From Acidobacteriota bacterium (GTDB taxonomy: Bacteria > Acidobacteriota > UBA6911 > RPQK01 > JAJDTT01), in assembly GCA_965263035.1 (NCBI GenBank), contig OZ253580.1, positions 5,152,001 through 5,216,000 on the forward strand: 64,000 bases of DNA, read 5' to 3'. Every line of letters begins with the position of its first letter. Position 1 is the stretch's first letter. The notes beneath the pieces are model-generated. The model saw nothing but the letters and a program-made list of their open reading frames with translations. It did no database searches and had not been told where the DNA came from. Positions 8,132 through 33,687 of this stretch are shown here, piece by piece. A program made the translations under genes and the position numbers.

Positions 8132-9343
8132 CCGCGGACCCCGGTTGTGCCACCAGCGCAACTCCAGGCCCCGCTCGTTGACGGCGACCACGTCGGACCA
8201 CTCATCCCCGTCCATGTCCGCCACGATCACGGTGGCGCCCAGGATCCAATGCTCCTTCAGCGGGTGCTTCTTCCAGGGCGCTGTGGGATCTCCGGAATTC
8301 TCGAACCAGGCAATCTGTCCCTTCTGGCCGAACCCGGTGGCCACCACGTCCAGGTCGCCGTCTTTGTCCAGATCGTGGGGGACCCCCTCGAAGCCGTACC
8401 AGAAACCTTCCTGGATGTTGTGCATGCGCCAGCGGTGGCCCCGTCCGGGTTCGCCCGCGTTCTCGTACCAGACCAGATAGTGGCGGTCGGGAGCATCTCT
8501 CCCCAGCAGGCCGCCCGCCATGATCAGGTCCAGGTCGCCGTCCCGGTCGAGGTCGACGGGCGTCCCATGCATGGGCAGATGCCGGAGGCTGATGGTGTGC
8601 CGCCGCCAGGGACCGGAGGCCGGATTCCCGCTGTTCTCGTACCAGAGAACCATGCCGGCCACCCGGGCCGAACCCACCAGGTCCATGAGCCCGTCCCCGT
8701 TGAAGTCACCCGCGCGGATCATCCGGGTCTCGAACCGGCCTTCGTCCACGACGTGGGTGGGCCACTCTTCGTGCTGCCACGGACCGGGATTCCGATACCA
8801 GGTGAACTTGTTCCCGAGCCGCCAACTGGAGGCGGCCACGTCCGGGCGGCCGTCCCCGTCCAGATCGGCCACGTCCACATCGTAGGCCCCCATGAGGCCG
8901 CCGCTGGTGATGGAGTGCCTTTTCCACGATTTGGTCTGCGCCGGATTTCCCGGGTTCTCGAACCAGAAGACGTCGCCGTAGAAGTTGTCGATCCCCACCA
9001 GATCGATACGCCCGTCCTGGTTGATGTCCGCCAGCCGGTGCCGTTCGTAACGGCCTTGCCAGTCCTCGCTGGCGATGGAATGGCGCCGGAACTTGCCGGA
9101 TCCGTCGTTCTCGTACCAGTAGAAGGCGTTGTGGACGCGTGATCCCTTGGTCCCGCAATCGGAACTGGTGAGATCCAGGTCGCCGTCACCGTCCAGGTCG
9201 GCCGCGGCCACGGCGTAGGCGTAGGTGTAGTCGTTGGAGATGAGGTGTTCCTCGAACTTCAGGTCACGGGCCTGAAGCAGCAGGCTCGCAGTGACGAGGC
9301 CGAGACAGATTCCGTACGGGTATCGATACTTGGACCAATTCAT
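8129..9343 (-). CDS. FG-GAP/VCBS repeat secreted protein
   Basis: Repeated DLDGDGDLD-type motifs followed by W(Y/F)EN; signal peptide; GGAGG RBS before ATG 9343. Confidence 0.9.
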   Translation of the reverse strand: MNWSKYRYPYGICLGLVTASLLLQARDLKFEEHLISNDYTYAYAVAAADLDGDGDLDLTSSDCGTKGSRVHNAFYWYENDGSGKFRRHSIASEDWQGRYERHRLADINQDGRIDLVGIDNFYGDVFWFENPGNPAQTKSWKRHSITSGGLMGAYDVDVADLDGDGRPDVAASSWRLGNKFTWYRNPGPWQHEEWPTHVVDEGRFETRMIRAGDFNGDGLMDLVGSARVAGMVLWYENSGNPASGPWRRHTISLRHLPMHGTPVDLDRDGDLDLIMAGGLLGRDAPDRHYLVWYENAGEPGRGHRWRMHNIQEGFWYGFEGVPHDLDKDGDLDVVATGFGQKGQIAWFENSGDPTAPWKKHPLKEHWILGATVIVADMDGDEWSDVVAVNERGLELRWWHNRGPR

Positions 9344-9470
9344 GACGCCTCCCGGTTGTCCAGAGACCATAGCTTGCCCGCTCTGCCGGTATCAAGGACC
9401 AGGCGCCGTCGGTTCCGGTCCCCACGAATGCCGATAGACTGAAGTGGTGATCAAGTTTTTCGAGAAACAA

Positions 9471-9497
9471 TGAAACTTTCGCCCGGCTTTCGGGTTT
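9471..9497 (+). promoter_or_regulatory. Possible autoregulatory ECF promoter
   Basis: TGAAAC-N16-GGTT ~40 nt upstream of the ECF sigma gene; SigW-like -35 box, weak -10. Confidence 0.35.
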
Positions 9498-9533
9498 CCA
9501 TTAAGACGATGGGATCGCAATCGCCAGTGCGTT

Positions 9534-10076
9534 ATGAACGACACTAGCGCTTTTGAAGCGTTCGTTTGCAAACACCAGGACCGGGTCTTCGGCATCGCCG
9601 TGCGGCTGCTGGGAGATGAGTCCGAGGCCGAGGATGTGTCCCAGACCGTCTTCCTGAAAGCGTTCGAACGATTCGAACGGTTGGGGAGCAACCCTGCGGC
9701 AGGAGGCTGGCTGCGAACCGTGACCACGAACCTGTGCCTGAACCTTCTGTCCCGCTATCGGGCTCGTTGGCGTCTGTTCAGCCAGCGATCGCCCGATGCA
9801 GCCGGAACCGGACGGAGCTACGAAGAGCGTCTGGTTATGCCCGGGTCCCAGTCGGTGGACCTGGAACGCGCCGAGGAGCATGCGCGATTGGAGCAGAGAA
9901 TTCGTGGGTTGCCGCCTCATCAACGTGTGCCGCTTGTGCTGTTTCATTTCGAAGATAAGAGTTATGGAGAGATCGCCGGAATCCTGGGTGTCACCCTGGC
10001 CAAGGTCAAGACCGACATCCACCGGGGCCGCCAGGCTCTCCGGCGCTTGATGGAGATGAACGATGAACGGCGATGA
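9534..10076 (+). CDS. ECF RNA polymerase sigma factor
   Basis: AEDVSQTVFLKAF, WLRTVTTNLCLN (region 2); SYGEIAGILGVTLAKVKTDIHRGR (region 4). Confidence 0.93.
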   Translation: MNDTSAFEAFVCKHQDRVFGIAVRLLGDESEAEDVSQTVFLKAFERFERLGSNPAAGGWLRTVTTNLCLNLLSRYRARWRLFSQRSPDAAGTGRSYEERLVMPGSQSVDLERAEEHARLEQRIRGLPPHQRVPLVLFHFEDKSYGEIAGILGVTLAKVKTDIHRGRQALRRLMEMNDERR

Positions 10077-10515
10077 TCTGGAGTCCTTGATTGATCGAAG
10101 GCTGTCCCAACTCCCGCCGCCGCGTGCGCCGAGGACACTCGTTCCCCGGGTGATGGCTCGGGTTCGAAAGCGGCGTCGGAGACCTTGGTATGCGCAGCCT
10201 TGGATCGCTTGGCCGCGGGTTTGGCAAGTATTGTCGGTGACGCTGCTCCTGGGCCTTTGCAGTATGGCTTGGTACGTATTCGAAGGCGCACGTGGCCTTT
10301 TCGATTTCTACGGGGCCACGAGTGTAGAGACGAGCATCATCGCCGTCACCGACACGGTTGCGGCGCTGGCGGAAAGTGCGCGTATCCTGCGTCGTGTGAT
10401 TCTGGAACCGATTGCCGGACCTCTCATGTTCGTGATGGTGATCGTGTGCATGGCGAGCGCATTGCTCGGTGCGGCGCTGGCCCGTTTGCTCCAGGAAAGG
10501 GAGGCTGGACGATGA
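10063..10515 (+). CDS. Putative membrane anti-sigma factor
   Basis: Overlaps sigma gene; LSQLPPPRAPRTLVPRVMARV followed by two TM segments. Confidence 0.7.
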   Translation: MNGDDLESLIDRRLSQLPPPRAPRTLVPRVMARVRKRRRRPWYAQPWIAWPRVWQVLSVTLLLGLCSMAWYVFEGARGLFDFYGATSVETSIIAVTDTVAALAESARILRRVILEPIAGPLMFVMVIVCMASALLGAALARLLQEREAGR

Positions 10516-11993
10516 AGTTCGCTTGGGGAATCTCGGGATTGTTGGCAGTGGCGCTGGGTCTCTCCGCGGGTTGTGCCGCCGATTCAAGCGGCCCTGAGGA
10601 ACCGCCGGTTCCAGGGATTCTGGAGGTCGGCAGCGATGACGGTGAAGTGGTGAAGATCGGAGGGAGCTACGTTCTCCGAAAAGATCAAGAGGTCGAAAGG
10701 CTCGTCGTCATCTCAGGTCTGGCCCGAATCGAAGGGACGGTCAAGGACGAAATCGTGGTGATCGCCGGCGGAGCGACGCTTGCCGGAAGTGCCCGCGTCC
10801 AGGGGAATGTCGTGGTCTTGGGAGGAACGGTCGAAGTCGAGGAGGGAGCCACCGTACGAGGAGATCTGGTGGTGCTTGGCGGCGGGTTGGAGGTTCCCCC
10901 CGGCTTTGAACCGGGCGGAGAACAGGTATCGATCGGGACGATCCCTACAGGAGGGATGCTGGCCGAAGTGATTCCCTGGTTCACCCAAGGGCTGTTTCTG
11001 GGCCGGCCTATCGTGCCGAGTCTGACCTGGATCTGGGCTGTCGTGGCCGTTCTGGCACTCTTGTATCTGCTGATCAACTTTATCTTCTCCGGTCCCGTGC
11101 ACGCTTGCGCTCAAGCTCTCGCCGACAAGCCGCTGAGCGTGGGTCTGGTGGGTATGTTGGTAGTGGTGTTGATTGCTCCCCTGTCTTTGATGCTGGTGGT
11201 GTCCGTTATCGGGCTGGTGCTGATTCCGTTCTTCTGGGTCATGCTCCTGGTCGCCGGACTCGTCGGGAGTGTGGGTGTGGCCCGCTGGATCGGAACCCGT
11301 GTTCTGGCTGAGGAATCTCCGGAGAACCGCGTCGATGCAGCGCGGTCGCTGCTCATCGGACTTGCCTTGATCACTCTGGTCTTCATGATTCCTGTCCTGG
11401 GTTTCGCCGCATGGTCCGTGTTGTGCGTACTGGCATTGGGCGCGGCGGCGACCGAAGCCTTTGCAGGGTTGAGGAGAGAGAATCCGGCCGCACCGTCCCC
11501 GGCCGCGCCATCGCCGCCGCCGGTACCGGCAGGAAGCGGACCAGTGGATGACAAAGCTGTGGAATCCGCCGCACTAACGGCATCGCAAGACGAACGCGTT
11601 TCGGCGGACGATCTTTCCGCGTTTCAGAGAGCCACCTTTCTGGTTCGACTGGGGGCTTTCCTGATTGATCTCGCCATGGTGGCCTTCTTGACGTACCTCC
11701 TGGAGATAGGAGGCGGAAAAACGTTTCTGCTTTTCTTGATCTATCGCATCGCACACTGGAGTTGGCAGGGGACGACGGTCGGCGGCATCATCTGCCGTTT
11801 GCGCGTCGTTCGCACCGATGGAACCCCGATCCGCTTCACCGAGGCGGCGGTGCGGGGACTCAGCAGCATTCTTTCGACGTTGGTCGTGGGATTGGGTTGG
11901 CTTTGGATTCTCTGGGATCCGGAGCGGCAGGCATGGCACGACAAGATCGCGGGTACCCTCGTGGTCCGGGTCCCGTCCGATTGGCCCCGGTGA
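10512..11993 (+). CDS. RDD-family membrane protein with N-terminal beta-helical (bactofilin-like) region
   Basis: Lipobox LSAGC; repeated V(V/I)xGG/xGxVxG motifs; C-terminal RDD motifs RLGAFLID, QAWHDKIAGTLVV; ATGA overlap at 10512. Confidence 0.85.
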   Translation: MKFAWGISGLLAVALGLSAGCAADSSGPEEPPVPGILEVGSDDGEVVKIGGSYVLRKDQEVERLVVISGLARIEGTVKDEIVVIAGGATLAGSARVQGNVVVLGGTVEVEEGATVRGDLVVLGGGLEVPPGFEPGGEQVSIGTIPTGGMLAEVIPWFTQGLFLGRPIVPSLTWIWAVVAVLALLYLLINFIFSGPVHACAQALADKPLSVGLVGMLVVVLIAPLSLMLVVSVIGLVLIPFFWVMLLVAGLVGSVGVARWIGTRVLAEESPENRVDAARSLLIGLALITLVFMIPVLGFAAWSVLCVLALGAAATEAFAGLRRENPAAPSPAAPSPPPVPAGSGPVDDKAVESAALTASQDERVSADDLSAFQRATFLVRLGAFLIDLAMVAFLTYLLEIGGGKTFLLFLIYRIAHWSWQGTTVGGIICRLRVVRTDGTPIRFTEAAVRGLSSILSTLVVGLGWLWILWDPERQAWHDKIAGTLVVRVPSDWPR

Positions 11994-12017
11994 TAACCGA
12001 AGTGACGGGCGGAAAAG

Positions 12018-12053
12018 TGTCCGAAATCGGACAGTTCGTCCCGATTTCGGACA
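12018..12053. repeat. Tandem 16-bp palindromes TGTCCGAAATCGGACA (cluster 1)
   Basis: Units at 12018-12033 and 12038-12053; same motif at 14154-14189 and 14425-14479. Confidence 0.8.
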
Positions 12054-12157
12054 CCTGCGACCGACTCGATATAGCGTCACGGATTCCGCTGCCCATGGAC
12101 CTCTGTTACCCGGAAGGGCCACCCGGATTCGCGGATGATCTATCGTGGTCGGTTTAG

Positions 12158-12315
12158 CAGTCCGTGGTGAAAGTCCCGCGAGCACCGAGACCGTTCCTGC
12201 GCCCGCCGGACAAGGCGCGATGAGGGAGCATACCGGGAGTATGTGACCGAGTCGCAACGCAGTCCGCCGGGATGCAGGGACGGTCGAATGCCGTGACGAC
12301 TTTTGCCACGGGCTG
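12158..12315. mobile_element. 158-bp MITE, family A, copy 1
   Basis: Imperfect TIRs CAGTCCGTGGTGAAAGTC / GACTTTTGCCACGGGCTG; perfect TTAG duplication (12154-12157, 12316-12319); near-identical inverted copy at 52396-52553. Confidence 0.9.
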
Positions 12316-12335
12316 TTAGAGGTAGAAAATCTGCC

Positions 12336-12605
12336 ATGACCTCAACCATCGACAGAGCTGGCCGTATCGTGATTCCCAAGGCGATTCGAGACGCGGCGCG
12401 GCTGGAACCGGGTACCAGAGTCAGATTTCGGGTCGTTTCCGGACGGGTTCAGATTGAACCGGTGCCACTTGAAGTCACGCTTGAGCAGCGCGGTTCACTT
12501 GTCGTCGCCGTTCCGGGCCCGGACCAGCCGGCCTTGAAGGCCTCCACGGTGGAGCGCACGATGGATTTGGTTCATGATCGCGGAGCCGCGAAGGGTGCTT
12601 CCTGA
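12336..12605 (+). CDS. AbrB/MazE/SpoVT-family antitoxin
   Basis: TIDRAGRIVIPKAIRDAARLEPGT AbrB-fold signature. Confidence 0.88.
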   Translation: MTSTIDRAGRIVIPKAIRDAARLEPGTRVRFRVVSGRVQIEPVPLEVTLEQRGSLVVAVPGPDQPALKASTVERTMDLVHDRGAAKGAS

Positions 12606-12655
12606 TTGAGTCGGTGTCTCTGCGACACCAGATGTCTCGTCCCAGCGGCGTACCG
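12606..12655 (+). pseudogene. Remnant of a VapC/PIN toxin N-terminus
   Basis: Directly after the antitoxin stop: (M)SRCLCDTRCLVPAA resembles the PIN first strand xxxDTSxLVAA, then runs into the 3' end of creD. Confidence 0.45.
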
Positions 12656-12673
12656 ACCGCGTCATTTCCGCCA

Positions 12674-14038
12674 CTACGAAGACCCGGTTGATTCCGGAGG
12701 TTGGGAACCAGCCGTGTACCAGTCCACACGCCGCGTGGCGTACATGATTGCCGCGAGGATGGCGAGAAGGCCCAGCGATCCGATGAGAAGGGCATAGTCC
12801 TCGTTCATGAGGAGGATGTAGAGGTAGGCGTAGAGCAGGGCGACGCCGGCGGCGACAAGAAAAGCAAGCCGCATACGGTGCAGTATCGTAGCGGAGTACG
12901 CCCCCACCAGTGCGATGATCGAAACGCTCGCCAAAGCATAGGCGAGCGGGAAACCGATGTGCTCCGACAGTGAGAGTTCCAGCAGGTAGAAAAGACAGAG
13001 CGCGCCTCCGAGCATGAGGAATTGGATCGGATGGACGCGGACGCCGGCCAGGACTTCAATCAGCCAGACGATGGCGAAGGGGAGAAGGATGAAGAGGAAT
13101 GCGTACTTTGCGCTGCGCTCCGCCATCCGATAGTGGTCCACTGGATGGATCAGCTCGACGCCGAAGCGTGAGCCGTCGACGGCTTCGCTCATCTTGGCCT
13201 CGGCTATCCACGCCTGCGGGTAGTTTCGGCCGAGAAACGGGATGGACCACTTGGCTTGGAAGTCCGTAGCCGACACGGTGCGCTCGTTCGGGAGCCAGTT
13301 GCCTTGGAAGCTTGGATGCCCGTAGTCCGACTGGAGCTCGACGATCGTCTGCTGACCGAAGGGGGTGAGGTAGAGTCCGAGGCTGCCGTTCAGAGAGAGC
13401 GGGAAGGAGAATTTGAACCGCTCCGTTGCGTCCGCCACGCCAACCGCTGCGCGGATGCCCGCAACTCCGTCCAGGAAGGCTCCAGTCCCCGGAAGGAACG
13501 GTACCCGCTGGCCGTGCCACGACACGGCCGTCTCTTTCTGAATGGCGCGCGCGTCCGATATTCCGACTGCAAGATAGGCTCGCTCCCAGTCGACCGCCGC
13601 GGGTTCGACACTCAGCTCGGAAAAGCTGGGACGTGCAAACTCTCCTTCGACCGTGAGGCCGAGCCTGTAGACCGGAACCGAGAAAATCCCCCGATAGCGG
13701 GTCTCGCTGTCGATGGAGCCGCGAGTGTGGAGCCGCTCCGGCAGGAAGATGGCGTTCCGGACTTCGGTGCGAGTGATCTCTTGGCCGCCTGTTGGGAACT
13801 CGGTCCAACGCCAGGTGTAGGGAACGACCAGCGCCGGGCCGGTGATGACCTGGGCGTTTCCCCACTTTGACGAAACCTCCGCCACCGCCTCTTGACGACG
13901 CTCTTGGCGCTCGGAAACCAGTTCCGCAATCAGCGCGATCGGGATCTGGAGCAGTAGCGCCAGGAACCCGACCAACAAGAGGCGCAGCATCTGCGAACTG
14001 CGAAGCGAGGATGTCAACCGCTCGATCGAATCTTGCAT
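12674..14038 (-). CDS. creD: Inner membrane protein CreD
   Basis: LVSERQERR, WGNAQVITGP, PSFQGNWLP, YRMAERSAKY, HPIQFLMLG, LSLSEHIGF, EDYALLIGS, TRRVDWY. Confidence 0.95.
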   Translation of the reverse strand: MQDSIERLTSSLRSSQMLRLLLVGFLALLLQIPIALIAELVSERQERRQEAVAEVSSKWGNAQVITGPALVVPYTWRWTEFPTGGQEITRTEVRNAIFLPERLHTRGSIDSETRYRGIFSVPVYRLGLTVEGEFARPSFSELSVEPAAVDWERAYLAVGISDARAIQKETAVSWHGQRVPFLPGTGAFLDGVAGIRAAVGVADATERFKFSFPLSLNGSLGLYLTPFGQQTIVELQSDYGHPSFQGNWLPNERTVSATDFQAKWSIPFLGRNYPQAWIAEAKMSEAVDGSRFGVELIHPVDHYRMAERSAKYAFLFILLPFAIVWLIEVLAGVRVHPIQFLMLGGALCLFYLLELSLSEHIGFPLAYALASVSIIALVGAYSATILHRMRLAFLVAAGVALLYAYLYILLMNEDYALLIGSLGLLAILAAIMYATRRVDWYTAGSQPPESTGSS

Positions 14039-28075: not shown

Positions 28076-28306
28076 ATGGCCCCGGTTTCACCGCGCTTGC
28101 CCGATGACTTATCTCAGCGCCTGCAACGGTTGGCCGACCTTACGGGGCGGAACAAGACCTTCTACATGATCGAGGCAATTCGGGAGCATCTGGACGACCT
28201 TGATGATTTGTATGTTGCTGAGCAACGGCTGGTCACCCTTCGATCCAGGGAGTCTCGGACCGTGCCGCTGGTCGAGGTGATGCGGCGTTATCGGTTGGAC
28301 GACTGA
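28076..28306 (+). CDS. RelB/CopG ribbon-helix-helix antitoxin (orphan)
   Basis: RLPDDLSQRLQRLADLTGRNKTFYMIEAIREHLDDLDDLY; GAGG RBS; AT-rich upstream region. Confidence 0.85.
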   Translation: MAPVSPRLPDDLSQRLQRLADLTGRNKTFYMIEAIREHLDDLDDLYVAEQRLVTLRSRESRTVPLVEVMRRYRLDD

Positions 28307-28322
28307 ATCGGATAAGAAACGC
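28290..28322 (+). pseudogene. RelE toxin remnant
   Basis: Overlapping frame reads I-G-W-T-T-E-S-D-K-K, like the MAWTIEFDKKA start of cognate toxins (ATG>ATC); cut at the repeat at 28323. Confidence 0.5.
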
Positions 28323-28390
28323 GGGGATGGGACAGTCTTGTTCCCCTCTTCGTCGTCTCTTCGCCGTCCCAAAGAGTCGGGCTGGTCGTA

Positions 28391-28456
28391 AGCGTAGAGG
28401 GGGGACTAATCGTCCCCCCTAACCCCCCCTAATCGGCGACAAGAAAGTCGCCGCTC
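28391..28456. repeat. REP-like element (GGCGACAAGAAAGTCGCC family), target of the group II intron
   Basis: Reverse complement of ~7974-8035; hairpin 28435-28452. Confidence 0.8.
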
Positions 28457-29163
28457 GTGCGCCCGACATGGGCTGTATCTAAGGGATGAAAGATCCCAAG
28501 GGAGGTGATGGGACCAACCCTAGCCGAACCGCAAGGCGTAGCCGCGAGGTGAAGCTGAAGGAAGCGGAAGGCAAACTGTCAATGGCCATTGAAAATTGCA
28601 CACATCGCGGGAGCCCCCGTGAAGGGAGCGGAGCGACCGCCACGGGGGCTCCCGCGGTCGGACCTGATCCCCTCATGCCTCCCTCCTTCCCGCTCCGGAT
28701 TCCTGTGCGCTGACCGCTCGGGCGGCGGTCGGATGGATCGCCCTGGAGAGCTCGGCGTGGCGGCGCAGCCGGTAGCTGTTGCCCCGGATGTTGACGATGT
28801 GGCAGCGGTGCAGGATGCGGTCCAGAAGCGCTGCCGCCATCACTTCGTCTCCCAGGATCTGGCCCCATTCCTCGAAGCCCTTGTTCGAGGTCAACACCGT
28901 CGAGGCCCGCTCGTAGCGCCGGTTCACCAGTTGGAAGAACAGAACCGCTCCGCTCTGGCCGACCGGAAGGTAGCCGATCTCATCCACCACCAGGAGCGCC
29001 GGATAGGTCAGGGTCTTGAGACGGTGGTTGAGCCGGCCCGCCGCCTTCGCTTCCTCCAAGGAGTCGATGAGGTCCACCAACGTCCCGTAGTAGACACGAC
29101 GGCCGCTCTCGGCCGCCGCGATCGCCAAGCTGATGGCCAGATGGGTCTTCCCCACTCCGGGCG

Positions 29164-29628
29164 AACCCACGACACAATGCTCACATTGCGACCTCCGTTA
29201 GAATCCATTACCCCTTTCACCCCTTAGCCGGACGAGACCTTGAACTGGCCGAGCCTCCTCGTCACGGCCAGTGTGGGGAGTGGTTCACCTGCCGGCTACC
29301 GGACAGTACTCACGCGAAGATCCCACGCTGGATGTGCCGGCCCGAAGCTGCGGCAGTGGGTCGGGTCGACGACCAGCCGCGATGCAGCGTCGGCGCCTTG
29401 CAAGAACTTCTGGACCTGATCGAGACGTTCGGGTCGAAGTCGGATTGTCAGACCACCCGGGGCAACGTTGCCCCCGGAGGACGGCATGAAGCAAAAGGAG
29501 TTCGCGTTTGCAACCCCCAACCAGCCCGAGTGGGACCAGCTACCCCCTTCGACCAGGAAGCAACTGCTGCGGCTGATGGCTCAGCTGCTGGAGCAGGCTT
29601 GGCGAGGGCAAAAGGAGGACGCCGATGA
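29164..29628 (+). CDS. Headless ORF (DUF5372/Y4bD-like); start codon supplied from 31724-31741 upon circularisation
   Basis: Stop-free frame NPRHNAHIATSVRIHYPFHPLAGRDL...KIPRWMC...ALQELLDLIE from the element boundary; track ORF 29332..29628 is its C-terminal part. Confidence 0.8.
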   Translation, partial: NPRHNAHIATSVRIHYPFHPLAGRDLELAEPPRHGQCGEWFTCRLPDSTHAKIPRWMCRPEAAAVGRVDDQPRCSVGALQELLDLIETFGSKSDCQTTRGNVAPGGRHEAKGVRVCNPQPARVGPATPFDQEATAAADGSAAGAGLARAKGGRR

Positions 29629-29644
29629 GAGGAAAGATCACTGA
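29486..29644 (+). CDS. 52-aa accessory protein upstream of the recombinase
   Basis: GGAGG RBS; MKQKEFAFATPNQPEWDQLPPSTRKQLLRLMAQLLEQAWRGQKEDADERKDH; overlaps the LSR start; below the ORF track cutoff. Confidence 0.75.
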   Translation: MKQKEFAFATPNQPEWDQLPPSTRKQLLRLMAQLLEQAWRGQKEDADERKDH

Positions 29645-31709
29645 GGATCACCTGAGACGCCAAGCCTACGTCTACGTGCGCCAGTCGAGCCTGCGGCAGG
29701 TTCGTTACCACCAGGAGAGTGGCCGGGTGCAATACCGGCTGGCGGCCAAAGCCGAAGAACTCGGATGGAACCAAGTCGAGGTGATCGACGAGGATCAGGG
29801 GCGTTCGGGGGCCACTACGGTCGATCGGGTGGGCTTTCAACGCTTGTCCGCCGAGGTCAGCCTGGGACGGTGCGGGGCCATCTTCAGTCTGGATGCCTCT
29901 CGACTGGCTCGCAACAATGCCGACTGGTACCGATTGCTGGACCTGTGCTCGCTGACGCGGACCCTGATCGTCGACAGCGAGGCCGTGTACGATCCGCGTC
30001 TCAGCAACGACCGACTGCTTCTCGGGTTGAAGGGAACGATGAGCGAGGCAGAGTTGAGCCTGCTCCGGCAGCGTGCCCAACAGGGACTGCTCAGCAAAGC
30101 GGCTCGCGGAGAACTGTACACCTCATTGCCAGTGGGGTTCGTTCTGAACCCGAACGGATGTTTGGAGAAGGATCCGGACCGCCGGGTGCAGGAAAGCATT
30201 CAGGGGGTGTTTGCTAAATTCTCCGAGACGGGCAGTGCCCGGCAGACTCTTCTGTGGTATCGGCAGGAAGGGATCCGGTTGCCCGTGAGACGACACACCG
30301 CTTGGGGTTGGGAGACGGTGTGGAAGCGGCCCGTCTACAGCAGCGTGCTGAGGGTCTTGAAGAACCCCCTGTACGCGGGGGCCTATGCTTGGGGGCGCAC
30401 CTGGACCGAGACCTACTTGAAGGACGGTCAAGCTCGCAAACGGATTCGGTCCCGGGCCCACCCGGAACAGTGGACGGTCTGGCTCAAGGAGCATCACCCG
30501 GGCTACATCGACTGGACGAGCTTTGAAGCGAATCAACGCCTCTTGGCCGACAACGCACAGATGCGAGGCAAAATGGCGAAGGGAGCCGTTCGTTCGGGAA
30601 AGAGTTTGCTGGCGGGTCTGCTGCTGTGTGGGCACTGCGGTCGCCGGCTGCACGTGGCCTACAGTGGAGTTGGGGGACGAGTCCCCCGCTACCATTGCCG
30701 AGGGGCGCGGATCAACCACGGCGTCGCGGGTTGCATCTCGTTTGGCGGACGCAGGGTCGACCAAGCCGTGGGGCGCGAGATCGTGCGAGTGGTTTCCCCA
30801 GGCGCGATCGAGGCGGCTCTGCGAGTGCAAGAGGAAGCCACCGAGCGAGACCGGTTGAAACGAGAACTCCTGGAGCGCGAACTCGAGCAGTTGCGCTACC
30901 AGGCAAGACGGGCTGAGCGACAGTACGATGCAGTCGACCCGGAGAACCGGCTGGTAGCCTCGACGCTGGAGCGGAAGTGGAACGAAGCCCTGAACAGTGT
31001 GCGCCAAGTGCAGTCCCGTCTGGAGCAGATCGGGCAGAAGCGGTCGAGTTCGCCGGGACCGCAGCGAGTGGAACTGCTCCGGCTAGCCGAGCGGTTTCCA
31101 GCGCTCTGGTCCGATGCCGTCACCGACAATCGGATCAAGAAGCGGATCGCACGCACGTTGATTGAAGAGATCATTGCGAGCGTGGATCAGGGTAGGCGGG
31201 AGGTGGAGTTGATCATCCGCTGGCGCGGGGGCAAACACACGCGGCTGCAGGTACGAAAGAACGCCACCGGTCGCCATCGCTACCGCACCGAGGAGGACGT
31301 GGTGAAGTTGGTTCGCCAGTTGGCCCGGCAGGTGAGTGACGATCAGATTGCCCGGATCCTGAACCGAATGGGCAAGAAGACGGGACGAGGGCACAGCTGG
31401 AACAAGACTCGTGTTCGCAGCTTGCGCAACTATCGGCGCATCCCAGCCTTCTCGCAACGCCCTCACGAATTCTGCAACATGCAAGAAGCGGCTTCGCAAC
31501 TGGGAATCAGCCCCAGTTCCGTACGCAAGCTGGTTGCCCGCAAACTCCTGCCAGCACGGCAGGTGGTGGCCACGGCCCCCTGGCAGATTCGGCACTCGGA
31601 CTTGGGATCTGAAGCAGTCCAACGAGCCGCCGAGGCCATTCGAAGCGGCAGAAGAGTTCCGCGAGGTACCAACGCGTCACAGTTAAGTCTCATGACATCA
31701 ACGATGTAG
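29625..31709 (+). CDS. Large serine recombinase (resolvase + recombinase + Zn ribbon + coiled coil + C-terminal HTHs)
   Basis: AYVYVRQSS catalytic motif, SRLARN, LKNPLYAGAY, LLCGHCG...C...C, C-terminal excisionase-like MQEAASQLGISPSSVRKL; AGGAGG RBS. Confidence 0.95.
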   Translation: MRGKITEDHLRRQAYVYVRQSSLRQVRYHQESGRVQYRLAAKAEELGWNQVEVIDEDQGRSGATTVDRVGFQRLSAEVSLGRCGAIFSLDASRLARNNADWYRLLDLCSLTRTLIVDSEAVYDPRLSNDRLLLGLKGTMSEAELSLLRQRAQQGLLSKAARGELYTSLPVGFVLNPNGCLEKDPDRRVQESIQGVFAKFSETGSARQTLLWYRQEGIRLPVRRHTAWGWETVWKRPVYSSVLRVLKNPLYAGAYAWGRTWTETYLKDGQARKRIRSRAHPEQWTVWLKEHHPGYIDWTSFEANQRLLADNAQMRGKMAKGAVRSGKSLLAGLLLCGHCGRRLHVAYSGVGGRVPRYHCRGARINHGVAGCISFGGRRVDQAVGREIVRVVSPGAIEAALRVQEEATERDRLKRELLERELEQLRYQARRAERQYDAVDPENRLVASTLERKWNEALNSVRQVQSRLEQIGQKRSSSPGPQRVELLRLAERFPALWSDAVTDNRIKKRIARTLIEEIIASVDQGRREVELIIRWRGGKHTRLQVRKNATGRHRYRTEEDVVKLVRQLARQVSDDQIARILNRMGKKTGRGHSWNKTRVRSLRNYRRIPAFSQRPHEFCNMQEAASQLGISPSSVRKLVARKLLPARQVVATAPWQIRHSDLGSEAVQRAAEAIRSGRRVPRGTNASQLSLMTSTM

Positions 31710-32068
31710 AAAGGTGGTGCAGTATGTCACCGGATCGGGCGGACCCAGGAAGACGATGTTTTCCCTTCGCTCCACGAAGCCCAGCTCGTGCAGCGAGTCG
31801 ATCTGCTCCCGTTTGATCGATGGCTGGAAGCTGAAGTCGAACTCCGCCAGCGTCTTGATCGCCGGCAGTCGGCTGGAACGCATGGCCGCCTCCAGCCGCC
31901 GGCTGTTGCGCAGGGCGATCTGGGCCGCCAGGAGCCGTTCGATGGCTTCCGAAGCGGTGGTCCCTCCGCCGTCCACCCCGGAGAGCACGCCGTCGAGGGC
32001 TTCCAGGGCGCCCGGCATCTTCAGATCCGCAAGCTGGGCGGCGATGCGCTCTCGGCGGGAGGGGATGT

Positions 32069-33111
32069 TCACGCCACACCTCCCGTGAGCCGGGCATACT
32101 CGGTCAAGGGACGGCGCTCGACATCGATGATCCTGGACCCGGACGGCACCGTTGCCTCGGGGCTCTCAGGGACTGGAGATGGGATGACGACAGACCGGTA
32201 AGGCCAAGACGCCAAGGGGGTTAAGATACTCACGCTCCCGCTCGAACCGGTCCACGGGCCGTTCCTTGAGCGTCCCGTGGTTCCGGACGTTGGCCTCCGC
32301 TTCCCGCCACTCCCGAGCCCGGGCGTTGAGATCGGCGTCCGACACGAAGTCTCGGCCATAGAAGAAACTCTCCCGAATGTAGCGGATCGGCCGCTCCACC
32401 TTCCCTTTCGTCTGAGCTCGATAGGGTCGGCAGGCCCGCACCCGAAAGCCGAGAGTGGCGGCTGAAGCGAACGAACTCCCGGTTCTCGATCAACCGTCCG
32501 CCCTCCTCCCGCCCGTCCCGGACGATGACCGACTTCATCTGGTCGAACAGAAGTTCCCCAGGGACGCCGCCGAAGTAGTCAAACGATGCCTCCAAGCCCC
32601 GCATCACCACCGGCATCGTCTGGCGCTCGTAGTAGCGGAACCACATCAACCGGGAGTAGCCCAGCACCACGATGAGCGCGTACCGCTTTCCCCACGGCAA
32701 CCGGAAGTCCGCGAAGTCCACGGAGGGCTGGTGGCCCGGAGCTGTCTCGAACCGCTGGACCGGCTCCTCGGGAGCCCGCGGCCGCGCTTGGCACACATAG
32801 CGCTTCACTTGACCGTAGCCGCCGCCATAGCCGGCCTTCCGCACCTCTCGGTACAGCCGCGTCGCCGTCAACTTCGGATACTCGGCCAGACGAGCATCGA
32901 TGATCGCCTTGTACGGATCCAGCTTCGACCGCCCCGGCCCTCTCGGTCCGTACTGCACCGGCTCCTCCTGGCCTCCCCGATGCAACTGTCCCTTCTGGAT
33001 CCAGTAGTAGACCGTCCGCCGGCTGACTCCCAGCTGCCGCGCGATCGCGGCCTTGCTCATTCCTTGTTCCAGATAGTGTCGCAATAGCACCCTCTTGTCG
33101 CTCCCAAACAT
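32069..33111 (-). pseudogene. istA: IS21 transposase IstA with two +1 frameshifts
   Basis: HTH SKAAIARQLGVSRRTV, RFETAPG, LLFDQMK, RAQTKGKVER; frame changes near 32452 and in the G-run 32216-32220. Confidence 0.88.
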
Positions 33112-33687
33112 AGCGTCTCCTCCTCCTGGTAGAGACGCTACGTAACAGAATCCCGCCCTCTCGGCGAACCTCTCGAGATCTTCCTTGTGGCTCCCCCCTA
33201 AGAGCCTCTTCAGGAACCAAAAGTGTGCAATATTCCATGGCCACATCTGTGCAATTTTCCATGGCCGCCAACATCTCAAGGGTGAGAGCCTTTGAGAAGT
33301 CAGCAGAGGTCATAGTAGCGAAGAAGCCGGATAATGCCGGTGGAGCGAAGGACCGAAGGAGTCGGACTGGCCCTATGGTGGACTCGTCAGCGGGATCGCA
33401 ACTACCTCCGGAAACGGGGCGGGGGGAGGCCCCTCGGACCCGGCACGGAAGGCCCAAGGGTGGAACCCGTCAAGCCGGAAGGGCGGAGATCAAGTCCCAG
33501 CGGCGGCGGAAACCGGAAAGAAAGGCCCTGTACGAGGCTCGAAAGAGCCTCGAGTGACTCCAACCGCCGGATACTGAAAACGGTACGTCCGGTGGTGTGG
33601 TCGAGTGCAGGGGCGCAATCCCCTGCACTCGACCCGATCACGCCGCCGCTCCACGCCGCCGCTCTACGTTACTTTCTTTGGAATTCT

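Follow-up and report, generated by a model that had tools for sequence, protein, structure and literature searches.

The 64,000-nucleotide (nt) window analysed here, from an Acidobacteriota genome (contig OZ253580.1, positions 5,152,001 to 5,216,000 of the forward strand), carries an insertion sequence (IS) of the IS21 family whose istB gene lies in two halves on either side of a gene for a large serine recombinase (LSR). The locus raises the question of what the recombinase is doing there: is it cargo carried by the IS21, a switch that turns istB on and off, or a mobile element that seeks out this site on its own account? Comparison of genomic copies, public contigs and relatives indicates that it is very probably a minimal autonomous LSR element that moves by conservative recombination into the Walker A codons of istB.

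A recombinase element in the Walker A codons of istB

A blastn search of the element against the whole source genome returned four copies, all four adjoining Walker A codons at the same place. Three of them interrupt istB, each in a different IS21, and the fourth interrupts a gene for a superfamily 1 (SF1) helicase. Copy c1, in the window, has an intact LSR gene and divides istB at LGPP/GVGKT (a slash marks the junction), while c2, 99.96% identical to c1 and also with an intact LSR gene, divides the helicase gene at QGPP/GTGKS. Copy c3 (92.7% identity to c1) lies in a second istB at LGR(P/S)/GTGKT and has a broken LSR gene; c4 (92.5% identity to c1) adjoins the C-terminal half of a third istB and is truncated at element position 1918. 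Since c1 and c2 differ at 1 nt in 2,578 and have unrelated flanks, comparison of their junctions fixes exactly 2 shared nt for strand exchange. This crossover dinucleotide, GG, has its left copy at 29160-29161 and its right copy at 31738-31739, and places the insertion point in the third codon of G-P-P in the istB Walker A motif. The same comparison shows the element ends to be an imperfect inverted repeat around the core.

Deletion of 29162-31739 by script (2,578 nt) left a single open reading frame (ORF) of 273 amino acids reading ...IVFLGPPGVGKTH..., restored without gain or loss of a base and without a target duplication. An earlier sequence-only reading of this DNA had proposed that the element separates GPP from GVGKT and that its removal gives an intact 273-amino-acid IstB, which the deletion confirmed. 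The extent it assigned to the element, 28673-32072, takes in both istB halves as well, and the element itself is shorter (Table 1). The target does match the element end at 11/12 positions, as that reading saw. A 2-nt core, the lack of duplication and the imperfect dyad symmetry of the attachment (att) sites together form the hallmark of LSR integration. Because the target is not duplicated, excision would restore istB exactly.

Contigs from four public runs, belonging to four studies, were placed on positions 28300-32500 of the window. In runs X6 (depth 189) and X13 (depth 156), one contig passes from 29157 straight to 31736, leaving out 2,578 nt, 6 letters being ambiguous at the skip position; the occupied junctions are spanned by contigs of X1 and X2. 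X6 holds both forms, with contigs that also cross both occupied junctions at a depth of about 83. As the X6 and X13 contigs lack exactly 2,578 nt, the same IS21 occurs in a filled and an empty form, and the boundaries between them are those deduced above. The "perfect reversibility" of the sequence-only reading is accordingly true in sequence and matched by exact empty sites in two studies, whereas excision as an event is something we infer.

The recombinase gene runs antiparallel to istB, and its product is a large serine recombinase by its domain content. The catalytic domain PF00239 occupies residues 14-163 (profile 1-144 of 145, E 4.7e-19) and is followed by PF07508 (Recombinase) at 189-309 and PF13408 (Zn_ribbon_recom) at 328-382, both above cut-off; catalysis of attP × attB recombination is predicted from this architecture. 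The protein continues past the zinc ribbon and coiled coil into a C-terminal extension of ~220 amino acids (residues about 470-694), whose length is conserved across the family and which contains a weak, below-cut-off match to HTH_17, of the excisionase type, at 619-660. Among NCBIfam models, likeness to XisF, CcrA and CcrB was sub-threshold, the best being XisF (68.8 bits against a cut-off of 375), and DUF4368 was absent from the Pfam matches at E <= 0.001.

To what does the recombinase respond? A six-frame search for GxxGxGK[ST] found 168 sites in the 6.2-Mb genome, 4 of them being element junctions. Each of the four copies occupies one and the same codon position within its site, which excludes chance. 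All three strong PF01695 genes that have a Walker region are occupied, and a weaker PF01695 match of 51.6 bits, which probably encodes a loader-type ATPase, is uninterrupted. The one copy outside istB shows the target to be a narrow DNA motif and not the gene as such. This copy, c2, departs from the expectation that the element sits only in istB, yet it lies in the same Walker motif, that of a helicase. The core common to the c1 and c2 attB sites, which are identical at 24/42 positions by manual count, has one other intact occurrence among the 168 P-loop sites, in the P-loop of an 809-amino-acid Lon protease (genome position 3842798; L185:327-2756), and that site is empty; a relaxed core pattern adds one ABC-type site. 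In the c1 and c3 targets, a 7-mer within the V-F/L-L codons and one within the G-K-T codons are reverse complements of each other, and such a partly palindromic target suits a dimeric recombinase. Judged from these sites, what the element recognises is a narrow DNA word rather than P-loops at large. Selection may also eliminate damaging insertions, as the vacant Lon site suggests; the Lon P-loop is a predicted off-target whose vacancy is presumably due to selection.

The three occupied IS21 elements are ~80% alike, and each is single-copy in the source genome, as blastn showed for that of the window; the description of the landing site as a multicopy IS gene, made in the sequence-only reading, does not apply here. 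The gene interrupted by c2 (L001:4815-6071 and 8599-12675; genome 4250814-4258674) encodes a helicase-nuclease of ~1,770 amino acids with AAA_11/12/19/30 domains and a C-terminal MTES_1575 nuclease domain. It was considered as a named defence gene and set aside: its PADLOC and NCBIfam likeness to the anti-phage helicases PDC-S37, ProA, Hhe and MkoC is far below the curated cut-offs, and no system is therefore named.

Table 1 Features of the split istB locus, in window coordinates
Feature	Position	Strand	Basis or remark
Mobile element proper, 2,578 bp	29162..31739	+	Four genomic copies, public contigs and ORF restoration
ORF-A, DUF5372-like, ~145 amino acids	29197..29628	+	Frame open from the element's left end
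ORF-B, 52 amino acids	29486..29644	+	In a different frame from ORF-A, whose tail it overlaps; stops 19 nt inside the LSR gene
LSR, 694 amino acids	29625..31709	+	Pfam
Shine-Dalgarno-like AAGGTGG plus ATG (31724-31726)	31711..31726	+	Directly after the LSR stop, reading outward
istB C-terminal half, beginning GVGKT...	28673..29161	-	PF01695 profile 98-235
istB N-terminal half, ending ...FLGPP	31740..32072	-	PF01695 profile 2-101
istA of the host IS21, two overlapping frames	32166..33279	-	Frameshift near 32441-32460
Host IS21-family element, ~2.1 kb minus insert	28584..33266	-	Terminal inverted repeats
Group II intron domain D1-D4	33269..33353	+	RF01998, 44 bits

Relatives, their targets and rival explanations

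Relatives were collected in two independent scans. A genome scan with one genome per species gave 123, of which the best 80 were analysed (35-88% identity, many phyla, often multicopy), and a metagenome scan gave 401, of which the 80 analysed (45-51% identity) included 74 with an assessable flank. Flanks were classed by blastx against a small set of Pfam-verified references; longest-ORF flank calls are often spurious in GC-rich DNA, and hand-picked frames were used for Pfam. IstB halves in the arrangement of the window flank 29 of the 80 genome loci (20 with both halves, 9 with one). The remaining genome loci comprise group II intron reverse transcriptase (14), IS66 (8, plus 1 mixed), rve (7), IstB split co-directionally with the junction after G-K-T (3, Anaerolineae), tyrosine recombinase (2), IstB_C on the right flank in a different arrangement (1, L053) and no match to the small reference set (15); the motif names rve (YN..R.H) and IS4-type (RWQVELFF) are a reading of the translations, with no profile match behind them. 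Among the 74 metagenome loci, IstB again leads with 27 (19 with both halves, 8 with one), ahead of tyrosine recombinase (7), IS66 (6), rve (2) and a reverse transcriptase on the other strand (1), and 31 gave no match. With three of the four genomic copies, the 29 and 27 IstB loci bear out the earlier proposal that the recombinase aims at istB Walker A DNA.

The position within IstB is constant. Pfam assigned IstB to all of 10 hand-picked relative flanks, the N-terminal halves ending at profile position 101 and the C-terminal halves starting at 96-100. Within the same genus, a close copy (88% identity) occurs in one of eight other genomes. In the other target classes the breaks, too, lie in conserved motifs: ...KNALFAG/SDGG in IS66, HxLR/H at about position 136 of the 172-position tyrosine recombinase profile, and position 14 of the RVT_1 profile (...PT/xxDR), where no fewer than three different introns of a single cyanobacterium are affected. 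IstA is broken at ...EK/G in a genome of the same family (G012) with eight element copies. A 45-row tree of the LSRs groups every target class other than IstB as a single clade, with a support of 100 in the Shimodaira-Hasegawa-like approximate likelihood ratio test (SH-aLRT); members of the IstB class are scattered over the clade to which the window copy belongs.

Several of these groups have features of their own. The G012 element is ~41% identical, and 6 of its 8 matches (L093, L096, L099, L101-L103) lie in IS21 istA after ...PGRGQEK, adjoining a conserved KGKVE-type motif; the flank of L089 differs, and the L104 copy is broken. In IS21, then, istA as well as istB is struck, each by a clade of its own. 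In a distant clade on Anaerolineae contigs (L056, L075 and L079; about 36-38% identity), the Walker A motif of IstB is split co-directionally and four codons later, after G-K-T, so that one motif serves in two registers. A Chroococcopsis genome and its plasmids (L058-L074, L083) contain at least 14 copies, 35-36% identical, which split group II intron reverse transcriptases and all share on their right side a 147-amino-acid minus-strand ORF; this ORF has no Pfam match and may belong to the element or be the N-terminus of the reverse transcriptase.

These data bear on three alternatives. The first combines loose specificity with a survival filter: the recombinase would hit many or all P-loop sites, and insertions in essential ATPase genes, being lethal, would be lost. 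The helicase insertion, attB sites that are alike at just over half of their positions, and an empty Lon look-alike, as purifying selection predicts, would all fit such a filter. However, many of the ~164 native P-loop sites lie in dispensable genes (those of ABC transporters, for example), and only sites with the narrow core are used; moreover, relatives at 45-50% identity strike the same IstB position in dozens of contigs, and target classes are inherited along the LSR tree. We consider this explanation unlikely.

The second alternative takes up the sequence-only suggestion of an on/off switch for IS21 transposition, and supposes that the host or the IS21 uses regulated excision to turn IstB on at a chosen time, by analogy with skin/sigK, SPbeta/spsM and the fdxN element. 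Integration is seamless and would be exactly reversible, the closest NCBIfam model, XisF, is the recombinase of the fdxN element (although far below cut-off), and run X6 contains empty and filled forms together. Yet the element is multicopy and patchy in its genus, several genes are struck, two of the four copies have decayed, and the istA gene of the host IS21 is frameshifted too; no evidence of regulated excision emerged, and a role as a switch is highly improbable. The third, that the recombinase is cargo without mobility of its own and is spread by IS21 transposition, is as improbable: an alphaproteobacterial genome with 15 loci (L022-L035, L041), most with identical IS21 flanks, is compatible with a composite that moves as a unit, but even these copies have at least three different right flanks, near-identical c1 and c2 lie in istB and an unrelated helicase gene and already contradict it, the three occupied IS21 elements are only ~80% alike, and insert-free IS21 occurs in the public runs.

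A probable gene start divided between the element ends

In all family members the LSR gene begins ~450 nt from the left end, and the two small ORFs of Table 1 lie in this interval. The stop codon of ORF-A, TGA (29626-29628), overlaps the LSR ATG in an ATGA overlap. As long as the window copy is integrated, the first ATG, GTG or TTG in the frame of ORF-A comes no earlier than 29332, a position past most of the conserved domain. This domain, the N-terminal ~80 amino acids, is conserved and was modelled with a predicted local distance difference test (pLDDT) score of 80-90 as a small beta-barrel plus helix. Five of 12 aligned members match PF17342 (DUF5372), the best at 6.1e-9, and the Atlas neighbours of ORF-A are DUF5372 clusters (score 0.93). 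A profile search against PDB sequences returned 0 matches, and Foldseek of the model found none at E <= 0.001, with weak SH3-like rows only. ORF-B is present in most relatives and has the conserved pattern W..LP....LL..LL. Synonymous-versus-nonsynonymous counts, which are small, weakly favour the ORF-A N-domain and ORF-B as coding.

The Shine-Dalgarno-like sequence and ATG at the right end are also conserved in relatives. When end joining was modelled, the right-end ATG fell in frame with ORF-A in 19/19 IstB-type loci that have both end motifs, with a constant spacing of 13 nt to the G-x-x codons of the flank, and it is likewise in frame in the IS66-type loci and in L036. This motif-anchored test replaced an att register set by automatic 12-mer likeness, which was plausible in 8/26 loci. 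The location of the ribosome-binding site and ATG for ORF-A on the opposite element end, together with the ATGA overlap, implies that full-length ORF-A, and with it more LSR, would be made from the circle only.

The same junction accounts for a further claim. The sequence-only reading had noted that the element supplies GTG-GGT-TCG, so that the distal istB half would start as (M)GSPGVGKT with a complete P-loop. These codons and a 165-amino-acid ORF beginning MGSPGVGKT... are present, but the protein is doubtful. Relatives do not conserve the start codon, their distal junctions reading, for example, VAGLTG, DAASSG or VTVSPG, and the distal half has no visible ribosome-binding site before it. 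The bases that precede it are the antisense of the ORF-A N-terminal codons and part of the recombinase site. The P-loop start looks like a by-product of the likeness between attP and attB.

We propose the following mechanism. The element is best explained as an IS-like integrative unit that carries the LSR gene and the two small upstream ORFs. Its two ends would join in a circle to form attP, which would recombine with an attB consisting of istB DNA for the strand-plus-P-loop V-F-L-G-P-P-G-x-G-K-T, with strand exchange at the 2-nt core in the third codon of G-P-P. The element is always antiparallel to the gene that it interrupts and causes no duplication, and excision would restore that gene. 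The target word occurs chiefly in istB and occasionally in the gene of another ATPase; in the source genome, every recognisable istB with a Walker region has been knocked out. In the circle, the ribosome-binding site and ATG would be joined to ORF-A, full-length ORF-A would be produced, and translational coupling would raise LSR to a high level, favouring re-integration. The sequence data show the anatomy and boundaries of the element, its target motif, the presence/absence polymorphism and the recurrence of the pattern across the family; circle formation, catalysis and circle-specific expression are all predicted from the arrangement of the sequence.

A broader reading, towards which we lean by a narrow measure, sees a large family of recombinase-only, hyperparasitic elements across phyla, whose clades disable mobile-element genes at catalytic or otherwise invariant motifs and use the disabled elements as landing pads that are portable and can be spared, and in which a circle-only start switches on DUF5372 and the recombinase. 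The proposed clade targets, part of the same reading, would be IstB Walker A, IstA ...EK/G, IS66 ...LFAG/SD, rve/IS4-type, HxLR/H of the tyrosine recombinases and reverse transcriptase ...PT/xxDR.

A number of observations weigh against these proposals. No circular attP junction was found among the contigs of the four runs, although contigs drop rare forms, and the presence/absence polymorphism could reflect insertion only, rather than excision. Two of the four genomic copies are decayed (c3 with a broken LSR gene, c4 truncated), and the two sides of c3 disagree at the deduced core (CC and TC), a mismatch that requires either later mutation of an old copy or a slightly different core. Locus counts overstate the number of independent events, since many multicopy loci share identical flanks. 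For the divided start, 32 IstB-type loci entered the test and 13 went unscored where the regular expressions missed one end motif; 2 of the 19 scored loci have an internal stop in ORF-A. The window ORF-A scores 16.5 bits against PF17342 (E 0.0086), below the 25-bit cut-off, and a DUF5372 family search of the source genome gave no match, a result made uninformative by the equal silence of the control genomes. A scan of 28900-32100 for sigma-70 promoters and terminators returned 0 sites, and the modelled circle junction contains no sigma-70-like promoter at >= 8/12 matches.

Host locus and comparison with known systems

The host element belongs to the IS21 family: istA, with a helix-turn-helix (HTH) and rve domain, is followed by istB (PF01695), and the whole is bounded by terminal inverted repeats of 22 nt at 28584-28605 and 33245-33266. 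Both genes are damaged, istA by a frameshift and istB by the insertion. Pfam places HTH and rve in a 349-amino-acid istA ORF and rve_3 in one of 91 amino acids. At the frameshift, runs X6 and X13 are 1 nt shorter (at 32451 or 32453), possibly the intact form, and run X1 has one base fewer at 32223; such length differences between runs could be real alleles or homopolymer errors of assembly. Runs X1 and X2 also show a back-joint 32253->28575 with 5 extra letters, which is probably repeat-driven and may stem from intron copies elsewhere. The IS21 is itself inserted into a group II intron repeat with ~25 copies in the genome, represented in the window by segments 28400-28576 and 33273-33639, which lie ~144 nt apart in other genomic copies. 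The description of the element as a parasite of a parasite was thus borne out, and the nesting is three deep: intron, IS21, recombinase element.

If the proposals are correct, they add a layer of parasitism in which a recombinase module lives on, and silences, insertion sequences and introns by homing to the codons that these conserve best, and they would explain many "interrupted transposase" pseudogenes in annotations. DUF5372 would gain a first context and a testable role, and an attP-split start codon would be a compact coupling of gene expression to the excised state. The family would also provide natural serine integrases with inferable attP/attB pairs and pre-existing landing sites, often in many copies, of interest for genome engineering. 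A literature search, with subscription journals and supplements outside its reach, found no description of recombinase elements aimed at istB or transposase genes and no paper containing the term "DUF5372"; a family that resides on mobile-element motifs, with an operon start split across attP, appears to be undescribed.

Genes interrupted by serine-integrase elements are known from SPbeta (SprA/spsM), skin (SpoIVCA/sigK), the Anabaena fdxN element (XisF) and Listeria A118 (comK). SprA/spsM is described as a case of a serine-integrase element that interrupts the gene and of a gene restored on excision (PMC5499854). The window element resembles these systems in its LSR, in attP × attB recombination at a 2-nt core within coding sequence and in the lack of duplication. 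They are, however, prophages or large islands, single-copy and placed in host genes. The window element amounts to little more than a recombinase module of 2.6 kb, occurs in several copies and targets a motif in a gene of another mobile element; its sister clades target other transposase motifs.

Conserved motifs, P-loops among them, also serve as homing sites for inteins, homing endonucleases and group II introns. These selfish elements share with the window element the use of the most conserved coding DNA, invariant across hosts, as a landing site. They splice out at the protein or RNA level and leave the host gene functional, whereas the window element inactivates its target and would move by another mechanism.

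Tn4451/Tn4453 and Tn5397 carry resistance cargo. The circular form of Tn4451 reportedly creates a promoter for TnpX, to go by the title of a 2000 paper by Lyras and Rood. These transposons share with the window element an LSR (TnpX or TndX) that would act as the transposase via a circle, at whose junction a signal for the recombinase operon would arise. In Tn4451 that signal is a promoter; in the window element it would be the ribosome-binding site and start codon of the upstream ORF, no promoter having been found there. DUF4368 marks the multi-targeting, TndX-like clade and occurs in 63% of it, according to a survey of LSR targets (PMC10083194). By that account the window LSR, which lacks DUF4368 and has a long, specific target, differs from the TnpX/TndX clade. 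A multi-target habit with short motifs does not describe it: four of four copies lie at one codon, and one site with the strict core is left in 6.2 Mb.

The same survey, Durrant et al. 2022, reports that distant LSRs converge on conserved sites in coding genes and that the top LSR target is an AAA+-type gene, Mg chelatase/ATP-dependent protease (PMC10083194). Its main text, so far as available, names no transposase, IstB or intron targets and describes neither minimal elements made of a recombinase alone nor a split upstream ORF (PMC10083194). Finally, IS607 is comparable in being IS-sized, in using a serine recombinase and in having neither DDE-type terminal inverted repeats nor target duplication. 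Its TnpA, a small serine recombinase, is described as having an N-terminal DNA-binding domain and minimal target specificity (PMC4058570, PMC6188088). In contrast, the window LSR is a 694-amino-acid protein in which the catalytic domain comes first, followed by the recombinase domain and zinc ribbon, and its target is specific.

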